Assembly: GCA_965221775.1 (NCBI GenBank)
Contig: CBDCSU010000004.1
Coordinates: 160,001-224,000 of the forward strand
Direction: 5' to 3'
Length of the DNA stretch: 64,000 nt
Source: Candidatus Latescibacterota bacterium
Lineage (GTDB): Bacteria > Latescibacterota > UBA2968 > UBA8231
Shown: positions 44,801 through 61,544 of the stretch, piece after piece
Numbering within the stretch: the stretch's first letter is position 1
Layout: the number at the start of each line of letters is the position of its first letter
Notes under the pieces: model-generated
Told to the model about the DNA's origin: nothing
What the model saw: only the letters and a program-made list of their open reading frames with translations
The model's database searches: none
Made by a program: the position numbers and the translations under genes

Positions 44801-44983
44801 GACGGCTTCCTGACCAACCCGGACCTGAGCAGCCAGATCGTCGAGGCCAGCGGCGGCCAGACCTACCGGCAGCTGTACGAGGCGATCAATCTGGTCAACC
44901 GGCAGCACTACTGGACGACCCAGGGCGGCGACATTCTCGGCGATCCGCGCCAGATCCGCTTCGGCGTCGAACTGGGACTCTAG
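41894..44983 (+). CDS. TonB-dependent receptor with N-terminal carboxypeptidase-regulatory-like domain
   Basis: Signal peptide, GKIAGTVTD, HIRGSRSDE, GGFNAEYG, QDKIEY..NAGLRWD, PRLGFSFP, YNLFN and C-terminal PRQIRFGVELGL. Confidence 0.92.
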   Translation: MLNRPLLRLLVAAAITALAGADTAHAAAGKIAGTVTDAATGAALAKANVFVVETESAAATDSEGRFFLLNVSPGIYTLRVTYVGYRPVIMEEVRVSADLTTDLEFRLGGEAIEVEEVVIKAERPIIDKNATNAVRIVEAEDIEILPGRGLGSVINLQPGVVIDEGALHIRGSRSDEVGFFVDGAAARNPVSGGRAVAVIDEALQEIQLQAGGFNAEYGGANAGIILQELRTGAPDWEVGLLTETDGFTSKYKERFGTYSYGYSNQVLTLSGPVAGNRVRAFLAGQRRIQDSVPTYWEGFEFNDLADTGDRGGRIHWSRDDDGNAIPDSVDLRLQPGNIDHTRSELLSVNGTLVADLQPFQLRLTSLYSASEGENNGAPVYNMLNTARLSEYEQTSSLHNLKATHFLGPRTFYEVNVSLYGQDRRGFDPDFGDAYLLYNDSLAVAGINPDFIPYSAQGISLRSYDLNGFPFARRGDLAAGYGKAEESYYGVSGSLTRQTDDHEYKIGFDYQRWTSRRYGVSTGGLRLAIENTYPELDKVYDQYYDGTVAAGELLDAMIAKAETLPDGEGSLKDFAALVRNTSRADYFGYDAFGRPDQGSGLEAPRHPVLASAFLQDKIEYGDLIVNAGLRWDYYDVDSYRFKDPQAPKRDDTLYTIDLDSMTKTRTFSELTPRLGFSFPVSDVTVFHVQYGRFTQMPAMRSMFAGGARLALELGGQNFISVPTALDIEPVRTTQYEIGFERQFTASASFDLTGFYRDVKGQLHLQRQDISAAAENASAYNFLQNGDFATTKGLEFVFKLRRVNRLRTELNYTLSDARGTGSSINSAVSGVENNTNLPTIISPLDFNETHRGNIFLDYRFADNDGGTLLENLGANLLMKFSSGHNFTLFTGSIGQRGPEEGGILAGDDPRSRKPVESINVSSTPWTYEVDLKVDKGVDLFGVDTNLYLYVYNLFNRRNVINVYGRTGNAEDDGFLTNPDLSSQIVEASGGQTYRQLYEAINLVNRQHYWTTQGGDILGDPRQIRFGVELGL

Positions 44984-45002
44984 AGGGAAGGGAGAGCGAT
45001 CC

Positions 45003-48000: not shown

Positions 48001-48251
48001 GCCACTTCGTGACCTTCAGCCACCTGCCGCAGAGGGCGACGGTCCGGCTCTACGACCTGGCCGGCAACCTCGTGCGGGTCCTGGAGAAGAGCGATCCCGA
48101 CCCGTTCCTGCGCTGGGATCTGAACAATCACAACGGCCTGCCGGTGGCCAGCGGCATCTACCTCGCTCACGTGGAGTTGCCCGACGTCGGCAAGAACCGG
48201 ACCCTGAAAGTAGTCGTCGTGCAGGAACAGCAGTTCCTGGAGAGCTATTGA
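45003..48251 (+). CDS. Large exported protein with C-terminal T9SS-sorting/FlgD-like domain
   Basis: Signal peptide, DNDGDG loop, WSDPDLG, FEGYNLYQ and YYFAVTAY (Fn3-like); C-terminal VFPNPYY..FSHLP..WDL.N.NGLPVASGIY. Confidence 0.8.
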   Translation: MKKLITFVAAGALLGATGAVEGRGLLAYGAAKAAQDETISGQQALINVNNMSMWFKRDGWSGRNPLNDNSGVTFPRSTGAVIFQDGLIWGGIVKDGNPQELRVGGQTYEIGTVPGRIISRGEAENRDDPGVRIYRIRRDYQTADLRLDASEIRGVALGAVTDEHVEGLRAEYERDWREWPWEKGAPFYDNDGDGSYDPDVDEPGVAGADQVAWFVVNDLDEGATQSLYGSQPIGVEVQMLFWAYARTDALGDVIFKKYSVIYKGTADTPDTARIEDMYFAQWSDPDLGDYGDDFAGADVDLSLGYVYNSTDHDHSYDRFGLAPPAVGYDFLQGPVVPVFLKDENGDTVLDEQGEPVLDGSSRAIFNFGLRPGFQNLPMTSFVYFAAGSAISDPDLGDYVGTQQWYNLLRGYQPQPDIDNPVPYTNPLTGEATFFTLDGDPTTAQGWNDGVPLPSGDRRIVLNTGPFQMALGDTQEVVVALLGGISTDRLRSVSKLKFSDQFVQDAYNNFFEVPSPPAGPDVRVSELDGRVLLDWSWNAEAIVQTEGDDGSGFLFEGYNLYQLPSAEAPLDQGTRLGTYDLENGVASILGIALDDESGVILEVPLQVGSDFGVRRRVWVTQDALRGGPLVNGQEYYFAVTAYNRNTAEGAAVTTLESSPRTLICVPRKPALGTRYGTEADESIAVEHAGGSEGSVEVVVVDPTRTTGDSYQVVFGEKEGAVVWSLVNTTSGETVLVDQSQTGTSMYMPEHGFELMVADAPLAIKELAWLRDGEPNDDDRWLTGVNWGGRSFGGGVDIGAFFFGSSIVTGADLIAVELRFSTTNTQKAYRYLRGGDPNYGFQDFVEVPFTVWDIDSDPPRQLNAGFVENSGSTSEDQTWLPANTEEDRNLGGREYLFLFKSDYSDQPLDRYSTMSILGDAGAFDVLYAGWLKLRDEHDSSELADGQVMRFTPYRVNTKEDVFRFEVPGALFDGDLQKEDVALINVFPNPYYGVNEAEVSPYSHFVTFSHLPQRATVRLYDLAGNLVRVLEKSDPDPFLRWDLNNHNGLPVASGIYLAHVELPDVGKNRTLKVVVVQEQQFLESY

Positions 48252-48262
48252 GGAGACCTGTC

Positions 48263-49291
48263 ATGATTCGGATCGAAAAGAGCGTCAACCTCCTCCTGGC
48301 GGGCCTTCTCATCCTGGGCGCCACACAGGCAGACGCAGCGGGACGTGACCGCATCGGCACCTCCGCGGCGCCCGAGCTGCTGATTCCGGTGGGAGCCCGC
48401 GACATGGCCCTCGGGGGGGCATCGATCGCCACCACCTCGGGGGTCGAGGCCCTGCACTGGAACCCGGCGGGACTGTTCCGGTCCACCAACAGCGTCGACC
48501 TGATGCTGTCGACCATGGACTACATCGCCGGGATCCAGGTCAACTACCTCGCCGTGGGCAGCCACTTCTCCGGTCTCGGCAACCTCGCCCTGAGCCTCAA
48601 GTCGCTGGACATGGGCGACATCCCGATCACCACCGAGAGCCAGCCCGACGGGACGGGGGGCAGCTTCAAGCCGACCTTCCTCACCGTGGGGCTCCACTAC
48701 GGCCGCGGCCTGACGGACCGCATCGGCCTGGGCACGACCCTGCACTACATCACCAACCGGGTCGACCGCGCCGAAGCGACGGGTATCTCCTTCAGCGCCG
48801 GTCTCCAGTACCTCGACCTGGCCAACATCGAGGGACTCGACTTGGGCGTGGCGGTAAAGCATATCGGCCAGCGAATGAGGTTCGAAGGGCCGGCCCTGTT
48901 GAACCAGGGTCACCTGAACTCGCTGCGGCGCGGCCCTTCCTTCTACAACGTCCAGGCGAGCTCGGCCGACCTGCCCTCGATCTTCGAGCTGGGCCTGGCC
49001 TGGAGCCACCAGCTGCCGGGGATGGCAGAGCTGAACCTCAGCTCCGTCTTCCAGCACCAGAACTACAGCTACGACCAGTACAAGCTGGGAGCCGAGTACG
49101 AGTACAACGACTTCCTGGCCTTGCGCGGCGGCTTCGACTACGCCGCCGACGCCGAGGACGACACCTACCTCTTCGGCAACAGCTTCGGCCTGGGGCTGGC
49201 CTTCGGCCCCGCCGCCCGCCTCGACTACGCCTACGGCGGCGTCGAGCGCTTCGACGCGCTTCACACCTTCACCTTCCAACTGGGCTTCTGA
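48263..49291 (+). CDS. PorV/PorQ family outer-membrane beta-barrel
   Basis: GTSAAPELLIPVGARDMALG, ALHWNPAGL, GAEYEY..LALRGG and terminal aromatic residue (QLGF). Confidence 0.82.
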   Translation: MIRIEKSVNLLLAGLLILGATQADAAGRDRIGTSAAPELLIPVGARDMALGGASIATTSGVEALHWNPAGLFRSTNSVDLMLSTMDYIAGIQVNYLAVGSHFSGLGNLALSLKSLDMGDIPITTESQPDGTGGSFKPTFLTVGLHYGRGLTDRIGLGTTLHYITNRVDRAEATGISFSAGLQYLDLANIEGLDLGVAVKHIGQRMRFEGPALLNQGHLNSLRRGPSFYNVQASSADLPSIFELGLAWSHQLPGMAELNLSSVFQHQNYSYDQYKLGAEYEYNDFLALRGGFDYAADAEDDTYLFGNSFGLGLAFGPAARLDYAYGGVERFDALHTFTFQLGF

Positions 49292-52200
49292 GTCCAGCCC
49301 GGCTTCTGCAACGGCCGCCGGTCCCCTGGGGAACCGGCGGCCGGGCCGTCGCTGTCCTGCTCCTGGTCCTCCTGCCAGGGGGGGATGCCGGGGCCCAGTC
49401 CCAGGCGACCACCGGGGTGATCCGGGGTCTGGTGCGGGACCAGTTCGGCACCCCCGTGGCCGGGGCCGAGGTCACCCTCCGGGAGACGGGGACCAACTAC
49501 GAACGCAGCCTCGCCTCGTCGGACCTCGGGCGGTTCACCGCGTCCCTGCTGCCCCTCGGTGCCTACGGCGTGACCGTGCGGTCCCCCGGCTGGAGCGAGG
49601 TCCGCCGGACCGGGGTGCGGGTGCGGGTGGGGGAGACGGTGGAGCTGACGATCACGCTCCTTCCGCAGATGGAGGCGGTCGTCGTCGAGGCCGCGGCGCC
49701 GGCGGTGGACGTCACCCGGAGCGGGCCGGCCACGCGCCTGCCCGAGGAGGCCGTGGGGGAGCTGCCCAACAACGGCCGCAACTTCCTCGACCTGACGCTG
49801 CTGACCCCGGGGGCGGCGATCGTCCAGGGGCCCGACGGAGACGAGCTGAGCATCGCCGGCCAGCGGGGCATCCACAACAACATCTCCGTCGACGGCGCCG
49901 ACTTCAACAACCCCTTCTTCGGCGAGCAGCGCGGCGGCCAGCGCCCGGCCTTCACCTTCAACCTCGACGCCGTGCAGGAGATGGTCGTCGTCCCTCAGGG
50001 GGCCAACGCCGAGTTCGGCCGCTCCAGCGGCGGCTTCGTCAACGTCATCACCAAGTCGGGGGGCAACGACCTGGGCGGCTCCCTGCACCTCTTCGGCAAG
50101 AGCTCGGCCCTGTCGGGCATGGCGAGGCATGACGGCCTGGAGCGGGAGCCGGACTTCGGCCAGGGCCAGTTCGGATTCACCCTCGGGGGGCCGCTGAAGA
50201 GGGACCGCGCCTTCTTCTTCGCCGCCTACGACCAGCAGGTCCTGCGGGATACGCGCCAAGCCGACGCCGGGCGCATCGACCCCCGGTTGCGCGCCTTCAT
50301 GGACTCGAGCTTCGACGGCGTCCTCGCCGGCGACTACGGCCCCATCGACCGCACCGACGACGCCCGCGCCCTCCTCGCCAAGGTCGACTGGCACCTCTCC
50401 CACCGCCACTACGCCACCCTCAAGTACAACTACACCTGGTCCGAGCAGGTGAACGGCACCTTCGATGTCGACTCCTGGGCGCGCAGCGCCAACGCCGTGG
50501 AGAGGGACTGGTCCCACGCCTTCAACGGCAGCCTGGTCTCGCTGCTGCCGGCGGCGGCGACCAACGAGTTCCGCTTCCAGCTCTCCCGCGAGGACCGGCC
50601 GCGGCCCTACCGGGGGCCGGACAACCCGCGCACCGGGCGGCCCTTCCCGGACACGGCCATGGACTTCGAACACGGCTACCGCTTCGGGATGCCCTACTTC
50701 ATCCCCGTGGAGTACTACGACACTCGCGTACAACTGCTGAACAACGTCTCCCTGGCCCGGGGCGATCACCTGATCAAGGCGGGGATCGAGTGGAACCGGG
50801 TCGAGTCGGTGCAGACCTTCATCGGCTTCGCCAACGGCCGCTACATCTTCAGTTCGGTGGACGGCTTCCTGAACTTCGCCGACCAGGGCAACGGCTACGT
50901 GGAGTGCTCCGACGGCAGTGCGGGCGCAGACGGGGCCTGCCCCGCGGGCACCGAGATCACGGGCCCCGTCCTGGTCTACCTGCAGCAGTCCGGCGTCGGC
51001 GGCCTCACCGTGGAGCAGGCCGGCACCCAGCGGATCCCCCAGCACGAGGTCGCCCTCTTCGCGCAGGACAGCTGGAAGGCCACGGACCGGCTCACCGTCG
51101 ACTGCGGCCTGCGCTGGGAGGCGCAGATCCAGCCCGATCCGATCACCGATCCGGAAGACGTGTTCTTCTCCGAGTTCATCGGCCGCGCAGTGACCAACGA
51201 GACCGGGAGCTACGAGTTCCCCTCCGACGGCCGCATCCCCTCCGACCTGGACATGCTCCAGCCGCGCCTGGGCGTGGCCTGGGACGTGCATGGGGACAGC
51301 CGGACCCTGGTGCGCGCCAGCGCCGGCCTCTACCACGCCCGCATCCCCGGTCTCAACCTGGCCAGCTCGCGCTCGACCAACGGCTCCCGCGGGCAGTCGA
51401 TCTTCCGCTCCAGCGCCCTGACGCCGGTCCTGGGGCCGCCGCCGCCCTTCGGCGAGCTGCTGCCCTCGCCCGCCGGCGATCCCTTCCGCCCCAACATCTA
51501 CGTCTTCCACCGCGACTTCGAGAATCCGCGCACCCTCAGCGCCCATGTGGGGCTCGAACGCGAGCTGCACCCCTCGGGCCTGGTGGGCTCCGTCGACTAC
51601 ACCCATGCCCGCGCCGACCACCTGACACGCTTCGTCAACCACAACGACGCCGTCTTCGGCTCCCCCTGGGCCGCGGGCCTGGGGGCCGACGGCGGCAACG
51701 GCCTCGGCGACCTCACCGTGGTGGAGAGCACGGCGCGCTCGCGCTACCACGGCCTCGGCCTCGGCCTGCGGCGCACGGCGGGGGAGGGGATGCGGTTCCA
51801 GGTCAACTACACCCTCTCGTGGGACAAGTCCGACGACGACAACGAGCGCGACCCCTTCACCTTCCGCTACGTCGACCCGACGCGGCTGGAGCGCGAGTGG
51901 GGCTGGTCCGACCGCGACCAGCGCCACCGCCTCAACGCCTGGGCCCTGGCGCCGCTGCCCGGCGGGTTCCTCGTCAACCACCGCCTGAGCTGGTACTCGG
52001 CGCAGCCCGTCTCCGAGGCCTGCGGCGACGACAACCGCGGCCTGGGGCGGGCGGCGGTCAACCCCTGGGGCGCCCTCTCCGACCGCATCTGCGGCGACGG
52101 CACCATCCTCCGGCGCAACATCCTGCGCAAGGAGCGGGGGTTCTTCTCGTGGGACGTGCGCCTGACGCGGCCCATCCCGTTGGCAGACGGACGCCTGGAG

Positions 52201-52347
52201 GCGATCGTCGAGGTCTTCAACCTCCTCGACACCGACAACTACCGCGAGCCGTCGAGCGCCGGTCTGCTCTTCAACTTCGACGGCACCGTGCAGTCGGGCC
52301 TGGGGGACCCCCGCGAGGTGCAGCTCGGCCTGCGCTGCGCCTGGTAG
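49288..52347 (+). CDS. TonB-dependent receptor (Oar-like), start uncertain
   Basis: LPNNGRNFLDL, VDGADFNN, AEFGRSSGG.VNVITKSG, QDSWK, PRLGVAWD, FNLLD and PREVQLGLR. The first canonical start is GTG 49417, but an in-frame signal peptide lies upstream of it. Confidence 0.85.
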   Translation: MSPARLLQRPPVPWGTGGRAVAVLLLVLLPGGDAGAQSQATTGVIRGLVRDQFGTPVAGAEVTLRETGTNYERSLASSDLGRFTASLLPLGAYGVTVRSPGWSEVRRTGVRVRVGETVELTITLLPQMEAVVVEAAAPAVDVTRSGPATRLPEEAVGELPNNGRNFLDLTLLTPGAAIVQGPDGDELSIAGQRGIHNNISVDGADFNNPFFGEQRGGQRPAFTFNLDAVQEMVVVPQGANAEFGRSSGGFVNVITKSGGNDLGGSLHLFGKSSALSGMARHDGLEREPDFGQGQFGFTLGGPLKRDRAFFFAAYDQQVLRDTRQADAGRIDPRLRAFMDSSFDGVLAGDYGPIDRTDDARALLAKVDWHLSHRHYATLKYNYTWSEQVNGTFDVDSWARSANAVERDWSHAFNGSLVSLLPAAATNEFRFQLSREDRPRPYRGPDNPRTGRPFPDTAMDFEHGYRFGMPYFIPVEYYDTRVQLLNNVSLARGDHLIKAGIEWNRVESVQTFIGFANGRYIFSSVDGFLNFADQGNGYVECSDGSAGADGACPAGTEITGPVLVYLQQSGVGGLTVEQAGTQRIPQHEVALFAQDSWKATDRLTVDCGLRWEAQIQPDPITDPEDVFFSEFIGRAVTNETGSYEFPSDGRIPSDLDMLQPRLGVAWDVHGDSRTLVRASAGLYHARIPGLNLASSRSTNGSRGQSIFRSSALTPVLGPPPPFGELLPSPAGDPFRPNIYVFHRDFENPRTLSAHVGLERELHPSGLVGSVDYTHARADHLTRFVNHNDAVFGSPWAAGLGADGGNGLGDLTVVESTARSRYHGLGLGLRRTAGEGMRFQVNYTLSWDKSDDDNERDPFTFRYVDPTRLEREWGWSDRDQRHRLNAWALAPLPGGFLVNHRLSWYSAQPVSEACGDDNRGLGRAAVNPWGALSDRICGDGTILRRNILRKERGFFSWDVRLTRPIPLADGRLEAIVEVFNLLDTDNYREPSSAGLLFNFDGTVQSGLGDPREVQLGLRCAW
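49312..49343. other. GC-rich inverted repeat after the PorV-like gene
   Basis: CGGCCGCCGGT...ACCGGCGGCCG 11-bp perfect stem; no U-tail. Confidence 0.5.
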
Positions 52348-52348
52348 C

Positions 52349-53584
52349 GTGGAACGCCTCGTCAGCCTCCTCGGCCTGCTGGTGATGGTCGCCCTGACCT
52401 TCGCCTTGAGCGCCGACCGCCGCCGCGTCGACCTGCGCCTGGTGGCGGCCGGGGTGGGGTTGCAGTTCGTCCTGGCCCTGCTCGTGCTCAAGACGGGGCC
52501 GGGACAGGTCCTCTTCGCCCACGCCGGCGCCTTCTTCACCGGCCTTCTGGGCTACGTCGACTTCGGCTCCCGCTTCGTCTTCGGCGACGCCTTCGAGGAC
52601 CACTTCTTCGCCTTCAAGGTCCTGCCCACGATCATCTTTTTCTCCGCCCTCATGAGCGTCCTCTACCACCTCGGCGTGATGCCGCCGGTGGTGGCGGGCT
52701 TCGCCTGGGTCATGCGCCGCAGCCTGCGCACCTCCGGTGCCGAGAGCCTGGCGGCGGCGGCCAACATCTTCGTGGGCCAGACCGAGGCGCCGCTGGTGGT
52801 GCGCCCCTACGTGGCCGCCATGACCCGCTCCGAGCTGACGGCTCTCATGGTGGGCGGCTTCGCCACCATCGCCGGCGCCGTGCTGGCCGCCTTCGTGGGC
52901 CTGGGGATCGACGCCGCGCACCTGCTGGCGGCGTCGGTGATCTCGGCCCCGGCGGCGCTCATGGCCGCCAAGGTGATGGAGCCGGAGGTGGAGACGCCGG
53001 AGACCCTGGGGCGGGCGGCGGTCCGGGTGGAGGGCACCGCCGACAACGTGGTGGAGGCGGCGGCCAACGGCACCCTGGACGGCCTGCGGCTGGCCCTCAA
53101 CGTGGCGGCCATGCTCATCGCCGCCCTGGGGCTGATCGCCCTCCTCGACGGCGCCCTGGGCTGGGCGGGCCGGGGCGCGGGCTGGGTCCTCGGCCTGGAG
53201 GGGATGGAGTGGTCCCTGTCGGCGGCCCTGGGCTACCTCTTCGCCCCCTTCGCCTGGCTCATGGGCATCGAGGCCGCCGACTGCCTGCGCGCCGGCGAGC
53301 TGCTGGGCAAGAAGATGGTGGCCAACGAGTTCGTCTCCTACGTACAGTTGAGCCAGTGGATGCAGCCCGGCTCGGGAGTGGAGCTGAGCCAGCGCTCGGT
53401 GGTCATCCTGACCTACGCCCTGTGCGGCTTCGCCAACTTCAGCAGCATCGGCATCCAGATCGGCGGCATCGGCGGCATCGCCCCGGAGCGAAGGGGCGAC
53501 CTGGCGCGCCTCGGATTCCGCGCCATGCTCGGCGGCACCCTGGCCTGCTTCATGACCGCCTGCGTGGCGGGCATCCTGCTGTAG
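52349..53584 (+). CDS. nupC: NupC/CNT family nucleoside transporter
   Basis: FAFKVLPTIIFFS, NIFVGQTEAP, GFATIAG, ANEFVSY and YALCGFANFSSIGI. Confidence 0.92.
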   Translation: MERLVSLLGLLVMVALTFALSADRRRVDLRLVAAGVGLQFVLALLVLKTGPGQVLFAHAGAFFTGLLGYVDFGSRFVFGDAFEDHFFAFKVLPTIIFFSALMSVLYHLGVMPPVVAGFAWVMRRSLRTSGAESLAAAANIFVGQTEAPLVVRPYVAAMTRSELTALMVGGFATIAGAVLAAFVGLGIDAAHLLAASVISAPAALMAAKVMEPEVETPETLGRAAVRVEGTADNVVEAAANGTLDGLRLALNVAAMLIAALGLIALLDGALGWAGRGAGWVLGLEGMEWSLSAALGYLFAPFAWLMGIEAADCLRAGELLGKKMVANEFVSYVQLSQWMQPGSGVELSQRSVVILTYALCGFANFSSIGIQIGGIGGIAPERRGDLARLGFRAMLGGTLACFMTACVAGILL

Positions 53585-53595
53585 GAGGGACTGTC

Positions 53596-54276
53596 ATGGA
53601 TCGACCACCAGACCCCGCGGCCCGAACCGCGGGCTGGCTGCTCCTGATCACCGCCGCCGCCAGCGTCCTGGCGGTCATCGGCCGGGTCGGGGCCACCGAG
53701 CTGGCGCCGCTGCACCAGTCGCTGGCCGCCATCAGCGACAGGCGCGGGCTCTACGGGACCGGCGGCGCGGCGCGGTTGCTCTCCGGGTGCGCGCTGTATG
53801 CGGCGGCATGGTCCTTGTTGCGGACCTGGATCATGCGCCGCGGACTCGGCTCACGGCCGGTACCCGTGCTGCTGGCGACTTCCGGAGCGGCCACCGCCAT
53901 CTCCGGCGCATCGGCCGTCGCCCTGGCAGCCACCGCGCCGCAGCCCGACTTCCTGGGCTACCTGGACTGGTCGCATCCCGCGATCATGTTGATGCACATC
54001 ACCTGGGTCACCGGCAAGGCCGGGTTCAGCCTGGCCGGTCTGGCGCTGCTGGCGGCGGCGCACCGGCAGTGGCGCGCCGGGGGCTTCCTGCAACCGATCG
54101 CCCCGGTCTCGGCGATCATCGGCGCCGGCATGCAGCTGATCTGGGTCGAGGCCGCGGTGGCGGCCCACTACCTCGCCGGGCCCGCCTTCGTGCTGTGGCT
54201 GGCGGCCATCGGCGTGCTGCTGGTGACCGGCCGCGTGGAACAGCGGTTCACCGTCCTGGCCGAGGAGGAGTCCTGA
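53596..54276 (+). CDS. Hypothetical membrane protein (~6 TM)
   Basis: AGGAGG RBS, ATG 53596, and several hydrophobic segments. Confidence 0.6.
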   Translation: MDRPPDPAARTAGWLLLITAAASVLAVIGRVGATELAPLHQSLAAISDRRGLYGTGGAARLLSGCALYAAAWSLLRTWIMRRGLGSRPVPVLLATSGAATAISGASAVALAATAPQPDFLGYLDWSHPAIMLMHITWVTGKAGFSLAGLALLAAAHRQWRAGGFLQPIAPVSAIIGAGMQLIWVEAAVAAHYLAGPAFVLWLAAIGVLLVTGRVEQRFTVLAEEES

Positions 54277-54280
54277 GAAA

Positions 54281-55582
54281 ATGGAGACCTCGATGACCAC
54301 TGATCGCCGCACCTTTCTGGGCCATCTCTTCGCCGCCGGCTATGGGCTGGGAAGCGTCTCGCTCCTGCGCGCCCAGGATCCGGGCCCGCCCGGAGGGGAG
54401 GTTCGCAAGAAGATCGCCTTCCTCGGCACGGAGGTGCGTACCCACTCCCACGCCCAGCACTTTCTCGACCGCCTGGCCATGGGTTACGGGTGGGGCGGGC
54501 ACTGGGAGGGTCCGCGCCTCGAGATCGCCTCGGTCTACATCGACCAGTTTCCGGAGGGAGACCTGGGGCGGCAGCGGGTCGAGAAGTACGGGCTGAAGCT
54601 CTACCCCGGCATCGAGGAAGCCCTCACCCTCGGTACCGGCCAGCTCGCCGTCGACGGGGTGGTGATCATCGCCGAACACGGAAAGTACCCCAACAACGAG
54701 AAGGGCCAGAGACTCTACCCGCGCTACGAGTGGTTCAAGAAGTGCGTGAAGGTCTTCGAGCAGTCCGGCCGGTCGGTTCCGGTCTTCAACGACAAGCACC
54801 TCTCCACCGACTGGGAGGAGTGCGTCGAGATGGTGGCGGACTCGAAGCGCCTCGGGTTTCCATTCTTCGCGGGCTCCTCCCTTCCGGTCACGCGCCGCAT
54901 GCCCTCGATCGACATGCCCCACGGGACTCCTCTCGAGGAGAGCGTCTGCGTGGCCTACGGCGGCGTCGACAGCTACGACATCCACGCCCTGGAGACGGCG
55001 CAGTGCATGTCGGAACGGCGCCAGGGCGGCGAAGTCGGCATCGAGCGCGTGCTGGCCCTCCGCGATCAGGCCATGTGGGATTACGTCTTTCGCAGCGACC
55101 GGGCCGGCACCCGCCGCCTGATCGAGTCCGCGTTGACTCGCAGCCACAATCTCCCCGTGAGCGGCGGCTACTACACCGACCGCATCACCTGCGAGTGGGC
55201 CCGCGAGCAGTTCGGCCGAGCCATCGGCTACTTCATCGACCACCGCGATGGTTTCCGCACCTCCATGTTCCTGGTCGGCATCCAGGACTTCAACTATGCC
55301 GGGCTTCGCGCCGACGATGGTGAAATCGTCTCGACCCAGATGTACCTTCCCATGCCCGGCCACGGCTCCTCCACGGCCGACTTCTTTCACCCCTTGGTGC
55401 GGCACATCGAGGAGACCGTCCTTACCGGCCGGGTCCCGTACCCCGCCGAACGCACCCTCCTCACCTCCGGCATGGTCATCGCCGGAGTGGAGAGTCTGCA
55501 CCGGGGCGGCGTGCCGGTCGACACCCCGGAGATGGCGGTGCGCTACACGGTGGGCCCGGAGTCGACCTACTGGCGGGACTGA
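54281..55582 (+). CDS. Tat-exported Gfo/Idh/MocA-like oxidoreductase (uncharacterised)
   Basis: DRRTFL Tat motif; LAVDGVVIIAEHG.YP, VFNDKHLS, AGSSLP and HALE. Confidence 0.7.
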   Translation: METSMTTDRRTFLGHLFAAGYGLGSVSLLRAQDPGPPGGEVRKKIAFLGTEVRTHSHAQHFLDRLAMGYGWGGHWEGPRLEIASVYIDQFPEGDLGRQRVEKYGLKLYPGIEEALTLGTGQLAVDGVVIIAEHGKYPNNEKGQRLYPRYEWFKKCVKVFEQSGRSVPVFNDKHLSTDWEECVEMVADSKRLGFPFFAGSSLPVTRRMPSIDMPHGTPLEESVCVAYGGVDSYDIHALETAQCMSERRQGGEVGIERVLALRDQAMWDYVFRSDRAGTRRLIESALTRSHNLPVSGGYYTDRITCEWAREQFGRAIGYFIDHRDGFRTSMFLVGIQDFNYAGLRADDGEIVSTQMYLPMPGHGSSTADFFHPLVRHIEETVLTGRVPYPAERTLLTSGMVIAGVESLHRGGVPVDTPEMAVRYTVGPESTYWRD

Positions 55583-55678
55583 GGGATCTTGAGAAGAACC
55601 TTGTCCAGCATCTTGAAGAGCATAGCCAGGCATCACGAAATGAGCGTCGAGGAACTACTGGAAGTGGTGGGAGCATAG
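55583..55678 (+). pseudogene. C-terminal fragment of a HicA-like toxin
   Basis: Reads ILRRTLSSILKSIARHHEMSVEELLEVVGA*, resembling the HicA C-terminal (G)TL.SIL...SVEEL helix; N-terminus absent; AT-rich. Confidence 0.5.
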
Positions 55679-55720
55679 CCGTTGAAGTGTCCAAGGGGGC
55701 CTTGCCGTCCCGCGCCTCGC

Positions 55721-56479
55721 GTGAAGGCGTTCTGCGTCGGCCAGGCGAAATCGGGCACTGCCTCGATCGCCGGGCTCCTGTCCGCCAACTACCGCGTGGC
55801 CCATGAACCCGAGCGGGCGGCAACGCTCGACCTGATCCTCCGGCACGCGCACGGTGAACTCTCGGACACGGCCGTCGGGGAGCACCTTCGGGTGCGGGAT
55901 GCCCGGCTCGACCTGGAATACGACGTGGCATGGGCAAACCAGTTCCTCATCCGGCACTTGGTGGACGTCTTTCCCGCGGTGGGATTCATCGTGCTGATTC
56001 GAGACTGCTACACGTGGCTGCAGTCGCTCACGAGCCATCTCGCCGTCCGCGACGTGCCTTCTGACGTGACCGAGTTCCTGAAGTGGTGGTTCAAGCCGGA
56101 CAGGTATCCGCACGGCCCCGCCGACCGCGTCCTCGAGGAGCGTGGCCTGTTCTCGGTGTCGGCCTACCTGCATGCGTGGAACCGGCATGTCGAGTCCTGC
56201 CTCAAGTCGATTCCGCCGGAACGGCGGTTGGTGCTGCGGACCAACGAACTCGGTGCCTCCCATCAACGTCTGGCCGGCTTTCTGCGAATCCCCGTCAACT
56301 CTCTCGACATGGCCCGGGGTCACCGCAACCGCGGTGCCTCGGCGGAACCACTTGCATCTCTCGTGGCCCCCGGGTACATCGACGAGATGGTCCACTCGAT
56401 CTGCGGGTCCAACATGGCGCGCTACTTCCCCTCGATTGGAGACAGGCTGCCCCGACCATGGATGGAAGCGCCGCACTGA
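55721..56479 (+). CDS. Sulfotransferase family protein
   Basis: AFCVGQAKSGTAS (5'-PSB loop), HEP, FIVLIRD..TWLQS (3'-PB) and LAGFL. Confidence 0.8.
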   Translation: MKAFCVGQAKSGTASIAGLLSANYRVAHEPERAATLDLILRHAHGELSDTAVGEHLRVRDARLDLEYDVAWANQFLIRHLVDVFPAVGFIVLIRDCYTWLQSLTSHLAVRDVPSDVTEFLKWWFKPDRYPHGPADRVLEERGLFSVSAYLHAWNRHVESCLKSIPPERRLVLRTNELGASHQRLAGFLRIPVNSLDMARGHRNRGASAEPLASLVAPGYIDEMVHSICGSNMARYFPSIGDRLPRPWMEAPH

Positions 56480-58938
56480 CCGCTCAGGTCCGCGCCCGGG
56501 TGGATGGGGACGGGCAACTCGAGGTCGAGGCCGGGCTGTTGGTCCTCGGGGCTCTCGAGGGGGACGCGGCCCTGGACCGGGCCCTGTCGGAGGAGGCCGG
56601 CCCTGCGGAAGCACGACCGGATGCCGAGGCGGATGTGACCCAGGCTCCGGCGAAACGTGCGTACCTCGACAAGATCTCGGTCCAGGGGTTTCGCGGTATC
56701 GGCGCCGTTTGTGACTTGCAGGTCCCCCCCGGCCCCGGCCTCACGCTGGTGGTGGGGCGCAACGGCAGCGGCAAGTCGAGCTTCGCCGAAGCCCTGGAGC
56801 TGTTGCTGACGGGCAAGAACCAACGCTGGGAGGGCCGCTCGGCGGTGTGGAAGGAAGGGTGGCGCAACCTGCACTGGTCCGGGCCGGCGGAGATCGCGGC
56901 CACCTTCGCGGTCGAAGGGCGAGGACAGCCGCTCACCGCAAGACGCGCATGGGTGCAGGGTGAGGGTCTGGACGCCGGGACCGACGAGGTAGATGGGGTC
57001 CAGGGGGACAACTTCCGTGCGTCACTTGGTTGGCACGAGGAGATCGTGACGTATCGCCCCTTTCTGCCGTACAACGAATTGGGGTCGATCCCCGACTACC
57101 GGCCCACCGAGCTGTACGACATGATGTCGGCGGCCCTGGGTCTCGAGGCTTTGGTGGAGGCTCGCCAGCGGCTACGCCAGCAGAGGCTTGACCGCGGCAA
57201 GCAGGTTCGAGCCGCGGAGGACGCACGGAAAGAGTGGTTCTCCCAAGTCGAGGAGCTCGACGATGAGCGGGCGCGGACCTGCGCGCAGGCAGCCAGGAAA
57301 CCCAAGGCCACCACTTGGGATCTCGACGCCGTGGCGCGGGTTCTGGAGGGAGCGCTCGAACCGGAAGGCGAGGGCGTGATCGCCCGGCTGCGCCAGCTCG
57401 CCACCCTCGCGGTGCCGGGCGTGGAAGAGGTGACGATAGCGGCTGAAGAGTTGCGGGCCGCAACAGAGGCGGTCAGGGACGCCGAACAGACCGATGCCGG
57501 CCGCGCCCGGCAGACCGCCGATCTGCTCGACCACGCACTGGCAGTGCACGCCGCACATGGAGATCAACCATGCCCGGTCTGTGGCTCCGGGGAATTGACT
57601 GCCGAGTGGCGGTCTCGTGTGGAGGCGGAAGTGCAGCGCTTGCGGACGGAGGCGGCCACGGCGAACCAGGCACATGCGATGCTTGCCAGGGCCCGCCAGG
57701 CCGCCCAGGCCTTGTTGGCCGAGCCGCCGGAGATTCTGGGTCGTGCTGCGGACACAGCCGGTCTCGACGCGACTGCTCTGCAGGAGGCATGGGGACGTTG
57801 GAGTGGTTTACGGGACGCAGCGGATGACAGCCTGATCGAGCACCTGGAAGAGGAGTACCTCAATCTCGCCGCCGTCCTGGACTCCTTTCGGGAGCAGGCC
57901 GCCGCCGAGTTGGGGCGCATGGAGGAAGCCTGGCGTCCTCTCGTCGATACCCTGCGCTCGTGGCTGCCAACCGCACGCGACGCGGTACACGCTTCCCGGT
58001 TGGTCCCGCATCTGAGCAGCGCGGAGAAGTGGCTCAACTCGGAGACCGACCTGATCCGGGCCGAACGGTTCGGTCCCATTGCGCAGCGGGCCTCGGAGGT
58101 GTGGGAGACCCTGAGACAGAACAGCAGCGTGACGCTGGATCACCTCAAGCTCGAGGGCTCGGCGACCCAGCGTCATCTCGTTCTCGACGTCAGCGTCGAC
58201 GGAACCGACGGCCAGGCCCTCGGGGTGATGAGTCAGGGCGAGATTCACGCCCTGGCCCTCAGTCTGTTCCTGCCGCGGGTGCTGCTGCCCGAGTCTCCCT
58301 TCGGGTTCGTCGTCATCGACGATCCGGTGCAGGCCATGGACCCGGGGAAAGTCGACGGTCTGGCGCGCGTGCTCGCTATGGTGGCGCAAGAGCGGCAGGT
58401 CGTCGTCTTCACCCATGACGAGCGACTGCCCGAATCGGTTCGCCGGCTGCAGATCCCGGCGCAGGTGGTCGAAGTCACGCGGCAATCCGGCTCGCAGGTG
58501 GCGTGCCGGACCATCGGCGACCCGGTTGCCCAGTACCTGGCCGATGCCCGCGCGCTGCAGCACACCGAAGACCTTCCGGCCGAAGCCGCGGCGCGGGCCC
58601 TGCCCCAGTTCTGCCGCCTCGCCATCGAAGCGGCGTGCACGGAGGTCGTCCGCCGCCGGCGCATCGGGCGCGGCGAGCCCCACTCCGACACGGACAAGGC
58701 GCTGAACGACGCCCGCACGCTGACGCAGAAACTCGCCCTCGCCCTGTTCGACGACGTCGGGCGCGGGGGGGAGGTGCTGGCCCGGCTCAACCGGTCCGAC
58801 TCCAGATGGGCCGATGCCGTCCAGTGGGCGAACCGTGGGGCCCACGGAGCCGCCGGGGCTACTCCGGACCTCTCGTCGATGGTCGGCTCCACCGGACGCC
58901 TGGCAGGATGGCTCGTCAAGCTCGATGGCAGCCCATGA
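56458..58938 (+). CDS. Rad50/SbcC/RloC-like ABC ATPase with zinc hook and C-terminal HEPN-like region
   Basis: GFRGI, Walker A GRNGSGKS, coiled coil with central CPVC, signature MSQGE, Walker B FVVIDDPVQAMD and H-loop VFTHD; C-terminal extension FCRLAIEAAC...ANRGAH. Confidence 0.85.
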   Translation: MDGSAALTAQVRARVDGDGQLEVEAGLLVLGALEGDAALDRALSEEAGPAEARPDAEADVTQAPAKRAYLDKISVQGFRGIGAVCDLQVPPGPGLTLVVGRNGSGKSSFAEALELLLTGKNQRWEGRSAVWKEGWRNLHWSGPAEIAATFAVEGRGQPLTARRAWVQGEGLDAGTDEVDGVQGDNFRASLGWHEEIVTYRPFLPYNELGSIPDYRPTELYDMMSAALGLEALVEARQRLRQQRLDRGKQVRAAEDARKEWFSQVEELDDERARTCAQAARKPKATTWDLDAVARVLEGALEPEGEGVIARLRQLATLAVPGVEEVTIAAEELRAATEAVRDAEQTDAGRARQTADLLDHALAVHAAHGDQPCPVCGSGELTAEWRSRVEAEVQRLRTEAATANQAHAMLARARQAAQALLAEPPEILGRAADTAGLDATALQEAWGRWSGLRDAADDSLIEHLEEEYLNLAAVLDSFREQAAAELGRMEEAWRPLVDTLRSWLPTARDAVHASRLVPHLSSAEKWLNSETDLIRAERFGPIAQRASEVWETLRQNSSVTLDHLKLEGSATQRHLVLDVSVDGTDGQALGVMSQGEIHALALSLFLPRVLLPESPFGFVVIDDPVQAMDPGKVDGLARVLAMVAQERQVVVFTHDERLPESVRRLQIPAQVVEVTRQSGSQVACRTIGDPVAQYLADARALQHTEDLPAEAAARALPQFCRLAIEAACTEVVRRRRIGRGEPHSDTDKALNDARTLTQKLALALFDDVGRGGEVLARLNRSDSRWADAVQWANRGAHGAAGATPDLSSMVGSTGRLAGWLVKLDGSP

Positions 58939-59312
58939 GTCCCGCCGAGATCATCGACGAGGCGGATTCGCTGGTAGGCCCCGATCCTAGCGGCCGCGTC
59001 CACGGCTGGCCGAGAATTGCGGCCGTGCTCTGCCGGCATGCGATCGAGGAGGCCCTTCGGCAATACTGGTCCCTGCGCGAGCCCGGCCTGGAGCGCTGCA
59101 GCGGGCGCGCGCAGCTACTGTGTCTTACCGTCTACCTGAGGGACCGCGACCTCGGCCGAGAGACCTTGGCGGCGTGGTCCGATCTGAGCCGTGCCTGTCA
59201 TCACCACGCATACGAGCTCGCTCCGACGGCGGAGGAGCTGCGGAACCTGCTGGACGTGGCGCGGCGGTTCACGCGCGAGGTCTCACGCCAGATCGCAACC
59301 CACCGGGGGTGA
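58935..59312 (+). CDS. Small HEPN-like protein (125 aa)
   Basis: ATGA overlap with the ATPase; helical; LCRHAIEEAL and RACHHH (Rx4H). Confidence 0.65.
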   Translation: MSPAEIIDEADSLVGPDPSGRVHGWPRIAAVLCRHAIEEALRQYWSLREPGLERCSGRAQLLCLTVYLRDRDLGRETLAAWSDLSRACHHHAYELAPTAEELRNLLDVARRFTREVSRQIATHRG

Positions 59313-59319
59313 TCGTCCC

Positions 59320-61191
59320 ATGCCCCGCCGCCCAGCCGTGATCCGAAGACTCCTCCTGCTGATCACCGCCGCCTCCGCGGCCCCCCTGGCCGCCGCCGTC
59401 GACCTGGCCGCCCTCGACGGCTGGCGGATCGTCGTCGCCCCCGGCGCCATCGCCTCCGAGGAGTACGCCGCCCGGGAGTTACAGAACCACCTCGCCCTCG
59501 CCGGCGGCCCCGAGCTTCAGATCCTCTCCGCGCCTGAAGGTCCGGGCGGCCACATATACGTCGGCCCTGACGCCGCCACGCAGAGCCCCGTCGGCTTCGA
59601 CCCCGCCGACTACGGCCCCGAGGACCTGCGTATCGTCGTGCAACCCGGCGCCATCGTCGTGGCCGGCGGCCGGCCGCGGGGGACCCTCTACGGGGTCTAC
59701 ACCTTCCTCGAGGACTACCTCGGCGTGCGCTTCGTCACCGCCGACCACACCCACGTCCCACCCTTGGGTGAGAAGAGGCCCATCGGTCCCGTGGACCGGG
59801 TCTACCGGCCGCCGCTGGAGTGGCGCTGGGCCGACTTCGAGACCAACTACGCCCGCCCCGACTTCGCCGCCCGGCGGCGGCTGAACGCGGGAAGGGTGGA
59901 AGCCCTGCCCCCGGGCAGCACCGACTGGAGCCTGGTGGGCCGCTACGGCGGCCGCTCGCCCGTGCATCTCGTGGAGCACTCCTTCAACGCCCTGCTGCCG
60001 CCGTCCGAGTACGCCGACGACCACCCGGAGTACTACTGCCTCTACGAGGGCGAGCGCTGGGCCCACCGGCGCTACGAGGACGGCCGCTTCCACGAGGACC
60101 TGCAGCCGTGCATGACCCACCCCGAGGTCCTGCGCCTGATCACCCGCGCCGCCCTCGGATTCCTGGAAGCGCGTCCCCGCCAGATGGACGTCAGCGTCGG
60201 CCAGAACGACGGCAGCGTCTGGTGCCAGTGCCCGTCGTGCCGGGCGATCAACGAGCGCGAGGGCACGCCCATGGGCTCGCTGCTGACCCTGGTGAACGCC
60301 GTCGCCGACGAGGCCGCCGCCGCCCATCCGGGGCGGCTGGTCTCGACCCTGGCCTACGCCTACAGCGCCCCGCCGCCGCGTTCGCTGAAGCCGCGCGACA
60401 ACGTCCTGATCATGTGGTGCAGCATCGACGCCTGCTTCATCCACGCTTTCGACGACCCGGACTGCCCGGACAACGCCGCCCAGTACGCCCAGTTGAAGGC
60501 CTGGTCCCGGATCGCGCCGAACCTGCACGTGTGGGACTACTACATGAACCACGACCGCCGCGGGTTCCAGCTGCCCCTGCCCAACCTGCGGTGGATCGAC
60601 CGCAACGTGCGCGCCGAGGTCGACCTCGGTGTCCGGGGCCTTTTCACCCAGGCCTTCAGCAGCTCCCACGGCAACGAGTTCGAGGGCCTGAGGAACTACC
60701 TGCTGAGCCGGCTCATGTGGGACCCCTCCCTCGACGGCCGGGCCCTCATGGTCGAGTGGCTGGACCTCCACTACGGCCCGGCGGCGCCGCCGATCCTGGG
60801 CTGGATCGACCGCCTCCACGACCGCGCCATGGCCAGCGGCCTGCACCGCCACAGCCTCGGGGGCCGCTACGACGAGTACGGCCTCGACGAGTCCGATGTC
60901 GCCGCCGGCCTGGAAGCAGTTGAGGAGGCGATGAGCCTGGCCGACAGCGACGCCGTGCGCCGCCGCGTCGGGCAGGCCTCCGTCTGGGCCTGGCGGGCCG
61001 CCCTGGAGCCGGTGTGGTACGCCACGGGGGAGGTCGATCTGGATCCGCGGCAGGCGGAGGAGCTGCGCGCCCGGGCGAAACGGTTCTTCGAGCTGTGCCG
61101 CGAGCACGACGTGCGGCGCACCGCCTCCGGCAGCTGGTTCGCCATCGACAAGGCCGAGGCGCGCGTGCGCGCCGCCATCGGCGACTGGTAG
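59320..61191 (+). CDS. DUF4838-like exported protein
   Basis: Signal peptide; YAARELQ, GGRPRGTLYGVYTFLE, HPEYY, QPCMTHPEV, QNDG..WCQC..C, TLAY and WDYY. Confidence 0.78.
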   Translation: MPRRPAVIRRLLLLITAASAAPLAAAVDLAALDGWRIVVAPGAIASEEYAARELQNHLALAGGPELQILSAPEGPGGHIYVGPDAATQSPVGFDPADYGPEDLRIVVQPGAIVVAGGRPRGTLYGVYTFLEDYLGVRFVTADHTHVPPLGEKRPIGPVDRVYRPPLEWRWADFETNYARPDFAARRRLNAGRVEALPPGSTDWSLVGRYGGRSPVHLVEHSFNALLPPSEYADDHPEYYCLYEGERWAHRRYEDGRFHEDLQPCMTHPEVLRLITRAALGFLEARPRQMDVSVGQNDGSVWCQCPSCRAINEREGTPMGSLLTLVNAVADEAAAAHPGRLVSTLAYAYSAPPPRSLKPRDNVLIMWCSIDACFIHAFDDPDCPDNAAQYAQLKAWSRIAPNLHVWDYYMNHDRRGFQLPLPNLRWIDRNVRAEVDLGVRGLFTQAFSSSHGNEFEGLRNYLLSRLMWDPSLDGRALMVEWLDLHYGPAAPPILGWIDRLHDRAMASGLHRHSLGGRYDEYGLDESDVAAGLEAVEEAMSLADSDAVRRRVGQASVWAWRAALEPVWYATGEVDLDPRQAEELRARAKRFFELCREHDVRRTASGSWFAIDKAEARVRAAIGDW

Positions 61192-61206
61192 GGGGAGGAG
61201 GGAAGA

Positions 61207-61476
61207 GTGGCGGTGGTCTTCATCCCCCGGCGGCTGCGGCCGCTGAGCGGAGGGCGCGGGCAGGTCCGCGTGGAGGGCGCCACGGTGCGCCAGGTGATCG
61301 AAGCCCTGGAGGCCGAGTGCCCGGGGATCAAGGCGAGGCTCTACGACGCCGAAGGGGACGCCCTGGCCCGCGGCATGGCGGTCACCGTGGACGGCGTCAC
61401 CGGGGAGCTGGGCCTGCTGGAGAAGGTGGGACCGGAGAGCGAGGTCCACTTCCTGCCCGCCATCGCCGGCGGCTGA
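61207..61476 (+). CDS. MoaD/ThiS family ubiquitin-like sulfur carrier
   Basis: 89 aa; VEGATV..VIEALE..CPG and C-terminal PAIAGG. Confidence 0.9.
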   Translation: MAVVFIPRRLRPLSGGRGQVRVEGATVRQVIEALEAECPGIKARLYDAEGDALARGMAVTVDGVTGELGLLEKVGPESEVHFLPAIAGG

Positions 61477-61544
61477 TCGCGGCTGGTTGCCATGGTGCCG
61501 TGCATCGGCGTTTTTGGTTGTCCGCCCTCAGACCGGAGCCCTCG

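Follow-up and report, generated by a model that had tools for sequence, protein, structure and literature searches.

The window analysed here is a 64,000-nucleotide (nt) stretch of the genome of a Candidatus Latescibacterota bacterium (assembly GCA_965221775.1, contig CBDCSU010000004.1, positions 160,001–224,000). Between positions 56458 and 59312 of the window lie two overlapping genes, one for an ABC ATPase of 826 amino acids (aa) and one for a helical protein of 125 aa. An earlier reading made from the letters and their translations alone, hereafter the sequence-only reading, had proposed that they form an anti-phage system in which a zinc-hook ATPase resembling RloC is coupled to a small HEPN-like protein. 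The two genes carry the following features, all on the forward strand and numbered from the start of the window.

56458–58938, forward strand: ATPase gene (826 aa, Rad50/SMC-like ABC), called as an open reading frame (ORF) from the ATG at 56458
56458–56661, forward strand: N-terminal extension, residues 1–68, from the consensus of an 18-sequence alignment; the Pfam matches to the head start at residue 69
56755–56781, forward strand: Walker A/P-loop GRNGSGKSS, residues 100–108; G100, N102, G103, G105, K106, S107 and S108 invariant in 18 sequences
57571–57582, forward strand: putative zinc-hook motif CPVC, residues 372–375, at the apex of the coiled coil; C372, P373 and C375 invariant, V374 at 90% or more
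58228–58416, forward strand: C-terminal head lobe with MSQGE (591–595), Walker B IDDP (620–623), D-loop (627–628) and H-loop (H653), all invariant
58486–58935, forward strand: C-terminal helical domain, residues 677–826, possibly HEPN-like; seven helices in the AlphaFold2 model, with a pLDDT (predicted local distance difference test) score of 93.9
58615–58617, 58627–58629 and 58843–58845, forward strand: triad of this domain, R720, E724 and H796, from the conservation alignment
58935–58938, forward strand: ATGA shared by the end of the ATPase gene and the start of the small gene, seen in the sequence and read as translational coupling
58935–59312, forward strand: small gene (125 aa, predicted stand-alone HEPN-fold protein), ORF from the ATG at 58935, fold from its model and Foldseek
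59034–59036, 59046–59048 and 59199–59201, forward strand: conserved residues R34, E38 and H89 of the small protein, from a 77-member alignment

The head of the larger protein is of the SMC/Rad50 kind. It scored 54.5 bits against the Pfam family SMC_N (cut-off 40) and also exceeded the cut-offs of AAA_21, AAA_23 and AAA_15, and its best relatives in a PDB sequence search were SMC and Rad50 heads. The nucleotide-binding motifs, described as intact in the sequence-only reading, are indeed invariant in an alignment of 18 ATPase homologues with 45–76% identity, down to M627 and D628 of the D-loop and T652, H653 and D654 of the H-loop (18/18). The CPVC motif was likewise found where it had been placed, on a coiled-coil insert, and it most probably represents a Rad50-type zinc hook. 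Ahead of the head, residues 1–68 comprise a conserved helix (LxVEAGLLVLAALEG) followed by a variable acidic and proline-rich linker, and match no family model; they may serve in autoinhibition or in the docking of a partner. More than 4229 homologues of the ATPase were found, the best 120 of them mostly 812–843 aa long; among the matches listed, the closest homologues of the pair came from Acidobacteriota and from an assembly labelled Spirochaetia. In NCBIfam nothing came near its cut-off for either protein, and the Rad50 and SbcC models stayed far under theirs. The best PADLOC matches of the ATPase (mad3, LmuB, PDC-S06 and HEC-01A) were all limited to the head or the coil: PDC-S06 and LmuB matched the head lobe best, and the coiled-coil region matched the coils of LmuB and PbeC weakly.

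About 173 residues follow the H-loop. The final 150 form a confidently modelled helical domain, in agreement with the extension of that size noted earlier, and the two stretches singled out by the sequence-only reading, FCRLAIEAAC...ANRGAH in this domain and LCRHAIEEAL...RACHHH in the small protein, are present as given. Across 35 sequences reaching down to 30% identity, C719, R720, E724 and G739 of the domain never vary, and G794 and H796 occur in 90% or more. The domain matched no Pfam or NCBIfam model and, even at E ≤ 10, no PADLOC model. PDB searches with phmmer and with profiles gave chance-level matches only, for this domain as for the small protein, designed helical bundles among them. 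HEPN folds had been suspected in both proteins. For the C-terminal domain such a fold is weakly indicated, mainly because its profile resembles that of the small protein.

The small protein itself gave a clearer picture. AlphaFold modelled it as a five-helix bundle (pLDDT 88.8, predicted template-modelling score 0.84), and the model shows a HEPN-like fold with the four-helix up-and-down core of that class. The top Foldseek matches in the PDB were the sacsin HEPN domain, the HepT toxins of MntA-HepT, SO_3166, TT1696, ST0689, AF_0298 and TM0613, with query-normalised TM-scores (TMq) of 0.54–0.71 and a probability near 1. In the ESM-Atlas, its own unnamed family came first and the nearest named clusters, HEPN_RnaseLS or HEPN, followed at 0.78–0.81, which we take as a lead only. 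No Pfam model (HEPN included) or NCBIfam model matched the sequence, nor did any PADLOC model even at E ≤ 10, and it had no sequence relative in the PDB; the absence of a PADLOC match for this protein and for the C-terminal domain is the outcome that had been named in advance as favouring novelty.

The conservation pattern of the small protein recalls that of two known anticodon nucleases. As described in PMC2610378, RloC and PrrC share a C-proximal Arg-X3-Glu-X36-52-His triad, and any single mutation of the triad in RloC abolishes anticodon-nuclease activity. In 77 aligned small proteins, R34 is kept in 76, E38 in all and H89 in 74, and the family-constant core, Arg-x3-Glu-x50-His, falls within the RloC/PrrC spacing. 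W25, R27, W81, S85 and P97 are each present in more than 90% of the same set. Residues 84–94 read LSRACHHHAYE, and the RACHHH within them can be read as Rx4H (R86...H91), as the sequence-only reading had done for this copy.

We then compared the two helical domains with each other. A parallel between them had been noticed by eye; it did not reach significance in a direct BLASTP comparison (best E 0.13), but it emerged when profiles were aligned, hhalign giving a probability of 78% and an E-value of 1.8e-5 over 113 columns, with R720 opposite R34 and E724 opposite E38. The profile of the small protein repeatedly matched ATPase residues ~691–737, and the reverse search also gave matches (E-values between 4e-5 and 1e-2, the sets searched holding 120 to about 270 sequences). 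The patterns around the conserved histidine are alike in form as well, S85-x-A87-x-H89 in one and N792-x-G794-x-H796 in the other. From these comparisons we read the two domains as distant paralogues. The division of labour once proposed, a degenerate HEPN fused to the ATPase and a catalytic free one, found no support: both domains keep Arg-x3-Glu...His, and the arginine of Rx4H is not conserved in the small protein. Because both keep the triad, we prefer a model in which both would be catalytic.

Whether the two domains touch, as the sequence-only reading had supposed in proposing a heterodimer, was approached by complex prediction. The C-terminal domain and the small protein scored 0.53 (median of three runs) and the best of three controls 0.00, a value for the pair that lies in a band where predictions fail more often than they hold, unless the partnership was already likely at the outset. 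Contacts agreed 100% between runs, and the pLDDT of the partner was at least 81. Of 157 solved complexes, 116 reached the mark used for such predictions, as did 2 of 215 mismatched pairs; scores of 0.60 or less comprised just 18 of the 157 solved complexes together with both mismatches that passed, and these calibration counts are only approximate here because we supplied our own alignments. The prediction lends weak support to a pairing of the two domains and would suit a heterodimer.

The same contact would also suit a module in which the small protein is a regulator and not a second half of the enzyme. It could act like an antitoxin or decoy, as a HEPN that covers the nuclease domain at the C-terminus of the ATPase and keeps it from homodimerising productively until DNA is sensed, or, the other way around, the small HEPN could be the sole toxin, sequestered by the tail of the ATPase. 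The paralogy of the two domains, their weakly supported contact and the tight translational coupling of the genes, which suggests a fixed stoichiometry, are all in keeping with this. So is precedent: HEPN toxins are often restrained by a bound partner, PrrC by its restriction enzyme according to PMC3710099, and bioRxiv 10.64898/2026.02.22.705581 sets out other ways in which HEPN proteins are inhibited. A pure decoy or docking site, however, would not be expected to keep Arg-x3-Glu...His at 90% or more in both domains over wide divergence, and we think a regulatory role of this kind unlikely.

The association of the two genes is strict. A scan of species-representative genomes yielded at least 510 relatives of the ATPase among at least 711 pattern matches, and 78 loci from it were kept for analysis of the pair. 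They span at least seven phyla and come from Acidobacteriota, Actinomycetota (including Nocardia, Streptomyces and Actinoplanes), Chloroflexota, Dormibacterota, Gemmatimonadota, Myxococcota, Spirochaetia and a metagenome-assembled genome (MAG) labelled Proteobacteria. In 77 of the 78, a hidden Markov model of the small protein found its gene directly downstream of the ATPase on the same strand; in the remaining locus, a 2.5-kb contig, the sequence stops 98 nt past the ATPase. As in the window, where the ATGA overlap and the helical 125-aa product were found as described earlier, 49 of the 77 have an in-frame start with a 4-nt overlap at the ATPase stop, and the gap is at most 40 nt in 19 more. 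The remaining nine, all of the Nocardia clade, have their genes 98–383 nt apart. When the 931 called genes of these loci were clustered, no conserved third gene appeared: every other family was present in at most 13 of the 78 loci, and the largest of these families reflect synteny in Nocardia. The ATPase gene and the small gene form an obligate two-gene unit.

In that Nocardia clade (L052, L054, L056, L060–L062, L064, L067–L069, L071, L074 and L076), the pair stands in conserved synteny with AAA_5 (MoxR-like) and DUF5691 genes.

In none of the 77 loci were the ATPase and the small gene fused into one ORF. Searched against 1.84 billion representatives, the small-protein profile matched 1359 clusters (50% identity) at E ≤ 0.001, 987 of them at E ≤ 1e-10, and 148 of the best 150 matches were 200 aa or shorter. 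In one of the two long exceptions (P0308, 485 aa), the last part of an ATPase, whose C-terminal domain breaks off after 79 of its 150 profile positions, is joined to a small-protein part; P0036 (219 aa) is a similar, shorter piece. These two may be frameshifts, gene-calling or sequencing errors, or rare in-frame fusions. A search for fused forms among longer proteins returned just a 305-aa protein and a 388-aa fusion to a transposase (P0332). In the latter, a small-protein homologue (47% of the query covered) is joined to the transposase domains PF10551 and PF00872, and it looks like a small gene disrupted by an insertion sequence.

The pair also has the character of accessory genes, given its low third-position GC content (GC3) in the window, its patchy spread over phyla and its presence in three plasmid records. 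Phage genomes gave no tblastn match at E ≤ 1e-10. In RefSeq, the two products are labelled 'AAA family ATPase' and 'hypothetical protein'.

The sequence-only reading had suggested looking for defence islands around homologous pairs. In 30 of the 78 loci, hand-picked for taxonomic spread and long flanks, we examined the two called genes that flank the pair on either side (119 proteins), and counted PADLOC matches as strong at E ≤ 1e-20, most being far lower. Known defence proteins lie within two genes of the pair in 10 of these 30 diverse loci, a frequency for which there is no background rate, so that enrichment is a judgement and not a statistic. Near the pair, PADLOC identified the following.

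L009: a type IV restriction enzyme
L025: GmrSD/Orf5
L028: BrxD and BrxHI
L037: PglX and HEC-04 upstream, PglZ and BrxL downstream
L038: ZacA and ZacB (Azaca)
L041: a GajB-like helicase and PDC-S48
L047: SngB and SngC (Shango)
L058: a type I methylase
L063: type I-U Cas7 and Cas5/6
L075: HEC-09

Pfam added an integrase (L003), a PIN gene (L022), a TrwC relaxase (L041), a PLD nuclease (L078) and DUF222/DUF433 (L001). Three PADLOC assignments were taken as generic, namely those of a UvrA-like protein to mad3 (L011), an SbcC-like protein to LmuB (L012) and an ankyrin protein to PDC-M72A (L006). In L037 (4416–15228), from a Gemmatimonadota MAG, the pair lies within a BREX locus whose genes run PglX, a HEC-04-like ATPase-TOPRIM gene, the pair, PglZ and BrxL, so that a single BREX cargo slot holds a stack of two different ABC-ATPase modules.

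These neighbourhoods bear on a further alternative, in which the ATPase is a housekeeping DNA-repair protein of the SbcC/Rad50 type and the small protein its accessory subunit. The head finds its best PDB sequence matches in Rad50 and SMC, the Prokaryotic Genome Annotation Pipeline gives one homologue the Gene Ontology term GO:0006302 (double-strand break repair), and one locus, in Dormibacterota (L012, 102–4357), has a complete pair of SbcD-like (Metallophos) and 1023-aa SbcC-like genes about 600 nt upstream of the ATPase. That locus is the only one of the 30 with a repair-type nuclease nearby, and its SbcCD-like pair is complete in itself. No Mre11/SbcD-type (Metallophos) gene adjoins the pair in the window, as the sequence-only reading had said, or stands beside it in the other 29 loci. 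A repair role also sits poorly with synteny that is not conserved beyond a genus, with the patchy distribution over phyla and the atypical codon composition, and with the nearness of defence genes in 10 of 30 loci, one of them an insertion inside BREX; moreover, SbcC and Rad50, as described in PMC2610378, have no equivalent of the C-terminal domain. We regard a housekeeping role as very improbable.

Within the window, the pair lies in a compositionally atypical stretch, since the GC3 of the ATPase and small genes is 0.81 and 0.82 against 0.93–0.98 for most other genes. The low-GC3 stretch takes in two upstream genes, at 54281–55582 (0.89) and 55682–56479 (0.81). The second, a sulfotransferase gene of the Sulfotransfer_4 family, overlaps the ATPase start by 22 nt and is not kept beside the pair in other loci, so it may have come on the same acquired segment. 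The atypical island noted by the sequence-only reading is thus borne out in composition, but the HicA relic said to flank it was not found among 94 stop-to-stop ORFs of 30–140 aa on both strands of 52500–61500 (Pfam, E ≤ 0.05). Spurious ORFs are plentiful here because the window is high in GC (about 0.65–0.74).

A DUF4838 protein gene begins 8 nt past the small gene, and the other neighbours in the window include a nucleoside transporter, a membrane protein, a Tat-signal protein, a ThiS-like ORF and a seryl-tRNA synthetase. The ThiS-like ORF (61192–61473) is small, has high GC3, lies between the DUF4838 gene and the seryl-tRNA synthetase gene, and matches Pfam ThiS at E 3.4e-6 (27.9 bits, cut-off 22.5). 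Further upstream, 41894–52347 is a block of lower GC (about 0.64–0.68 over 42–48.5 kb) with a TonB-dependent receptor, a 1082-aa protein that has no Pfam match, a second large outer-membrane barrel gene and a possible porin-like ORF (about 48.3–49.3 kb). TonB-dependent receptors in the window carry CarboxypepD_reg domains and suggest that the host is Gram-negative. The block looks like a nutrient-uptake locus unrelated to the pair.

How might the pair work? We give a little better than an even chance to a two-gene defence module of the abortive-infection type, RloC-like and with the nuclease divided in two, whose DNA-sensing ATPase would control a HEPN-type RNase. The Rad50-like ATPase would dimerise through the zinc hook and its ATP-engaged heads and, if RloC and Lamassu are a guide, sense DNA that comes from phage or is damaged (ends, damage or replication intermediates). 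Its C-terminal domain and the co-translated 125-aa protein would together make a hetero-oligomeric, metal-independent RNase that the resting ATPase holds off. On sensing DNA, the ATPase would change its conformation in a way that depends on ATP and the hook, and so release the RNase. Cleavage of RNA, probably tRNA, would then stop translation and phage growth.

Several observations weigh against this module. The immediate neighbours of the pair are metabolic or of no known defence type in 20 of the 30 loci and in the window, and none of its own neighbours in the window is a defence gene. The ATPase reaches 21.2 bits against AAA_13, which we take to be the PrrC/RloC family, under the cut-off of 36 and over the head lobe only, and the PADLOC matches listed include no model named for RloC or PrrC, the presence of such models in that library being unverified. 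In the C-terminal domain, the Glu-to-His gap is 71, beyond the 36–52 of RloC, and N-x-G-x-H stands where HEPN proteins have Rx4-6H. Foldseek does list HEPN entries for this domain, most with a TMq of about 0.26 and the best, 2q00, with 0.50, all at E-values of 0.26 or higher; for the small protein, too, the E-values are weak (0.04–0.3, none ≤ 0.001). The Rx4H read in the window copy is not a feature of the family: the canonical arginine R86 is kept in just 42 of 77 small proteins, H91 in 52 and Y93 in 67. The complex score belongs to the same list, by virtue of the band in which it falls.

Part of this evidence could also be accommodated if the module serves defence or conflict but its helical domains have no RNase activity. 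HEPN-like bundles might then bind a nucleotide, a nucleic acid or a phage protein, and the effector would lie elsewhere, for example in ATP-driven DNA clamping or in a host factor recruited in trans. PMC3710099 describes HEPN domains that have no catalytic motif and serve as binding domains, and both the lack of a conserved Rx4-6H and the weak E-values of the fold matches fit such a role. The strictly conserved Arg, Glu and His of both domains, however, match the triad validated by mutation in PrrC and RloC, and the pair has no other conserved effector gene as a neighbour. We consider binding bundles of this sort quite unlikely.

There is also a bolder proposal, which we advance tentatively and rate below an even chance. 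The pair would represent a large, unnamed defence family in which a Rad50-like sensor bears half of a HEPN-type RNase and a coupled, separate subunit supplies the other half. A composite active site would form only when sensor and effector heterodimerise, and conformational change dependent on ATP and the zinc hook would switch it, a split, heteromeric form of the RloC principle and either its precursor or its derivative.

Modules that join an ABC ATPase to a nuclease (RloC, PrrC, OLD, PARIS, Septu, Lamassu) are a major theme in bacterial immunity, and to our knowledge the way in which the ATPase gates the nuclease is understood for few of them. The present pair is abundant (at least 510 genomic relatives and 1359 small-protein clusters at 50% identity) and, as regards the small protein and the C-terminal domain, unnamed in the family libraries searched (PADLOC, Pfam and NCBIfam). 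It occurs in soil phyla (Acidobacteriota, Actinomycetota, Chloroflexota, Dormibacterota) that are poorly served by screens based on E. coli. The split into a fused and a free paralogue offers a natural test of whether nuclease domains of the PrrC/RloC type act as dimers, and the pair is also suited to asking how a Rad50-like sensor controls such domains. If the proposal is correct, annotation tools for defence would gain a new detectable family, and one sort of cargo gene carried within BREX and further defence loci would be accounted for. In the literature on RloC, HEPN proteins, zinc-hook and Rad50-like ATPases and BREX we found the pair undescribed, although PMC7544218 (a classification of ABC ATPases) or the supplements of PMC3710099 may list its clade.

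Among known systems, the closest defence-library match to the head lobe is PDC-S06 (E 2.4e-12), a PADLOC candidate made of single-gene ATPases of ~850 aa, whose 'S' presumably marks a single-gene candidate. Its model lengths of 740–862 leave a C-terminal tail of similar size. The match nevertheless ends at the head (model positions ~600–711), and neither the C-terminal domain nor the small protein matches a PDC-S06 model. SbcCD is excluded because the pair has no nuclease partner and its ATPase has an extra C-terminal domain.

Lamassu resembles the pair in joining a Rad50/SbcC-derived ATPase, with CxxC hooks in some clades, to a small partner protein, and for both head and coil the best PADLOC matches include LmuB models. 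Its mechanism is described as DNA-end sensing (bioRxiv 10.1101/2025.04.02.646746). LmuB, however, has no C-terminal nuclease-like domain, and the Lamassu partner is helix-turn-helix-like or like the C-terminal domain of SbcD, whereas the small protein is predicted to be HEPN-like and matches no LmuA or LmuC model in PADLOC. We exclude Lamassu because the pair has no LmuA gene, because its small gene follows the ATPase whereas LmuC usually lies upstream, and because LmuC is of another fold.

HepT-MntA and the stand-alone HEPN toxins (SO_3166, TT1696, AF_0298) provide the best structural matches of the small protein, the HepT chains at a TMq of 0.65–0.68, and are of similar size and all-helical. 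HepT carries the motif Rx4HxY, and the similar RACHHHAY of the window copy is not conserved in its family. The conserved partner of the small protein is an ABC ATPase and not an MNT antitoxin gene, and no nucleotidyltransferase was found among the neighbours examined in the window and the 30 loci; for these reasons membership in HepT-MntA was rejected.

In PrrC, as proposed for the pair, an N-terminal ABC ATPase domain governs a C-terminal nuclease domain with Arg-x3-Glu...His, and a partner protein keeps PrrC latent; this silencing partner is its restriction enzyme (PMC3710099), the EcoprrI type I restriction-modification (R-M) enzyme. PrrC differs in having neither coiled coil nor zinc hook and in always occurring in a type I R-M locus, whereas a type I methylase lies near the pair in 1 of the 30 loci.

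RloC, which we compared through its published description only, comes nearest. PMC2610378 defines it as an ABC ATPase with a coiled-coil insert that bears a Rad50-like CxxC hook and with no Mre11-like partner, and reports that a hook mutant is hyperactive; PMC3458546 places RloC under the control of its zinc hook and of a DNA-dependent ATPase. A survey of HEPN proteins (PMC3710099) assigns PrrC's and RloC's nuclease domains to HEPN, regulated by their ABC domains, and records RloC-family genes inside Pgl operons. The pair departs from this description in that RloC is a single protein, whereas here an obligate second gene encodes what we read as a free paralogue of the nuclease-like domain (77/78), and also in the longer Glu-His gap of the fused domain (71 against 36–52) and the AAA_13 score under its cut-off. 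In other respects the two agree: in length (804 aa for Geobacillus kaustophilus RloC, 826 aa for the ATPase), in the split ABC head, coiled-coil insert, CxxC hook and C-terminal helical domain with Arg-x3-Glu...His, in having no Mre11/SbcD partner, and in a sporadic occurrence that at times falls inside R-M or Pgl/BREX loci. The likeness to RloC from which the sequence-only reading started is real at the level of architecture and triad.

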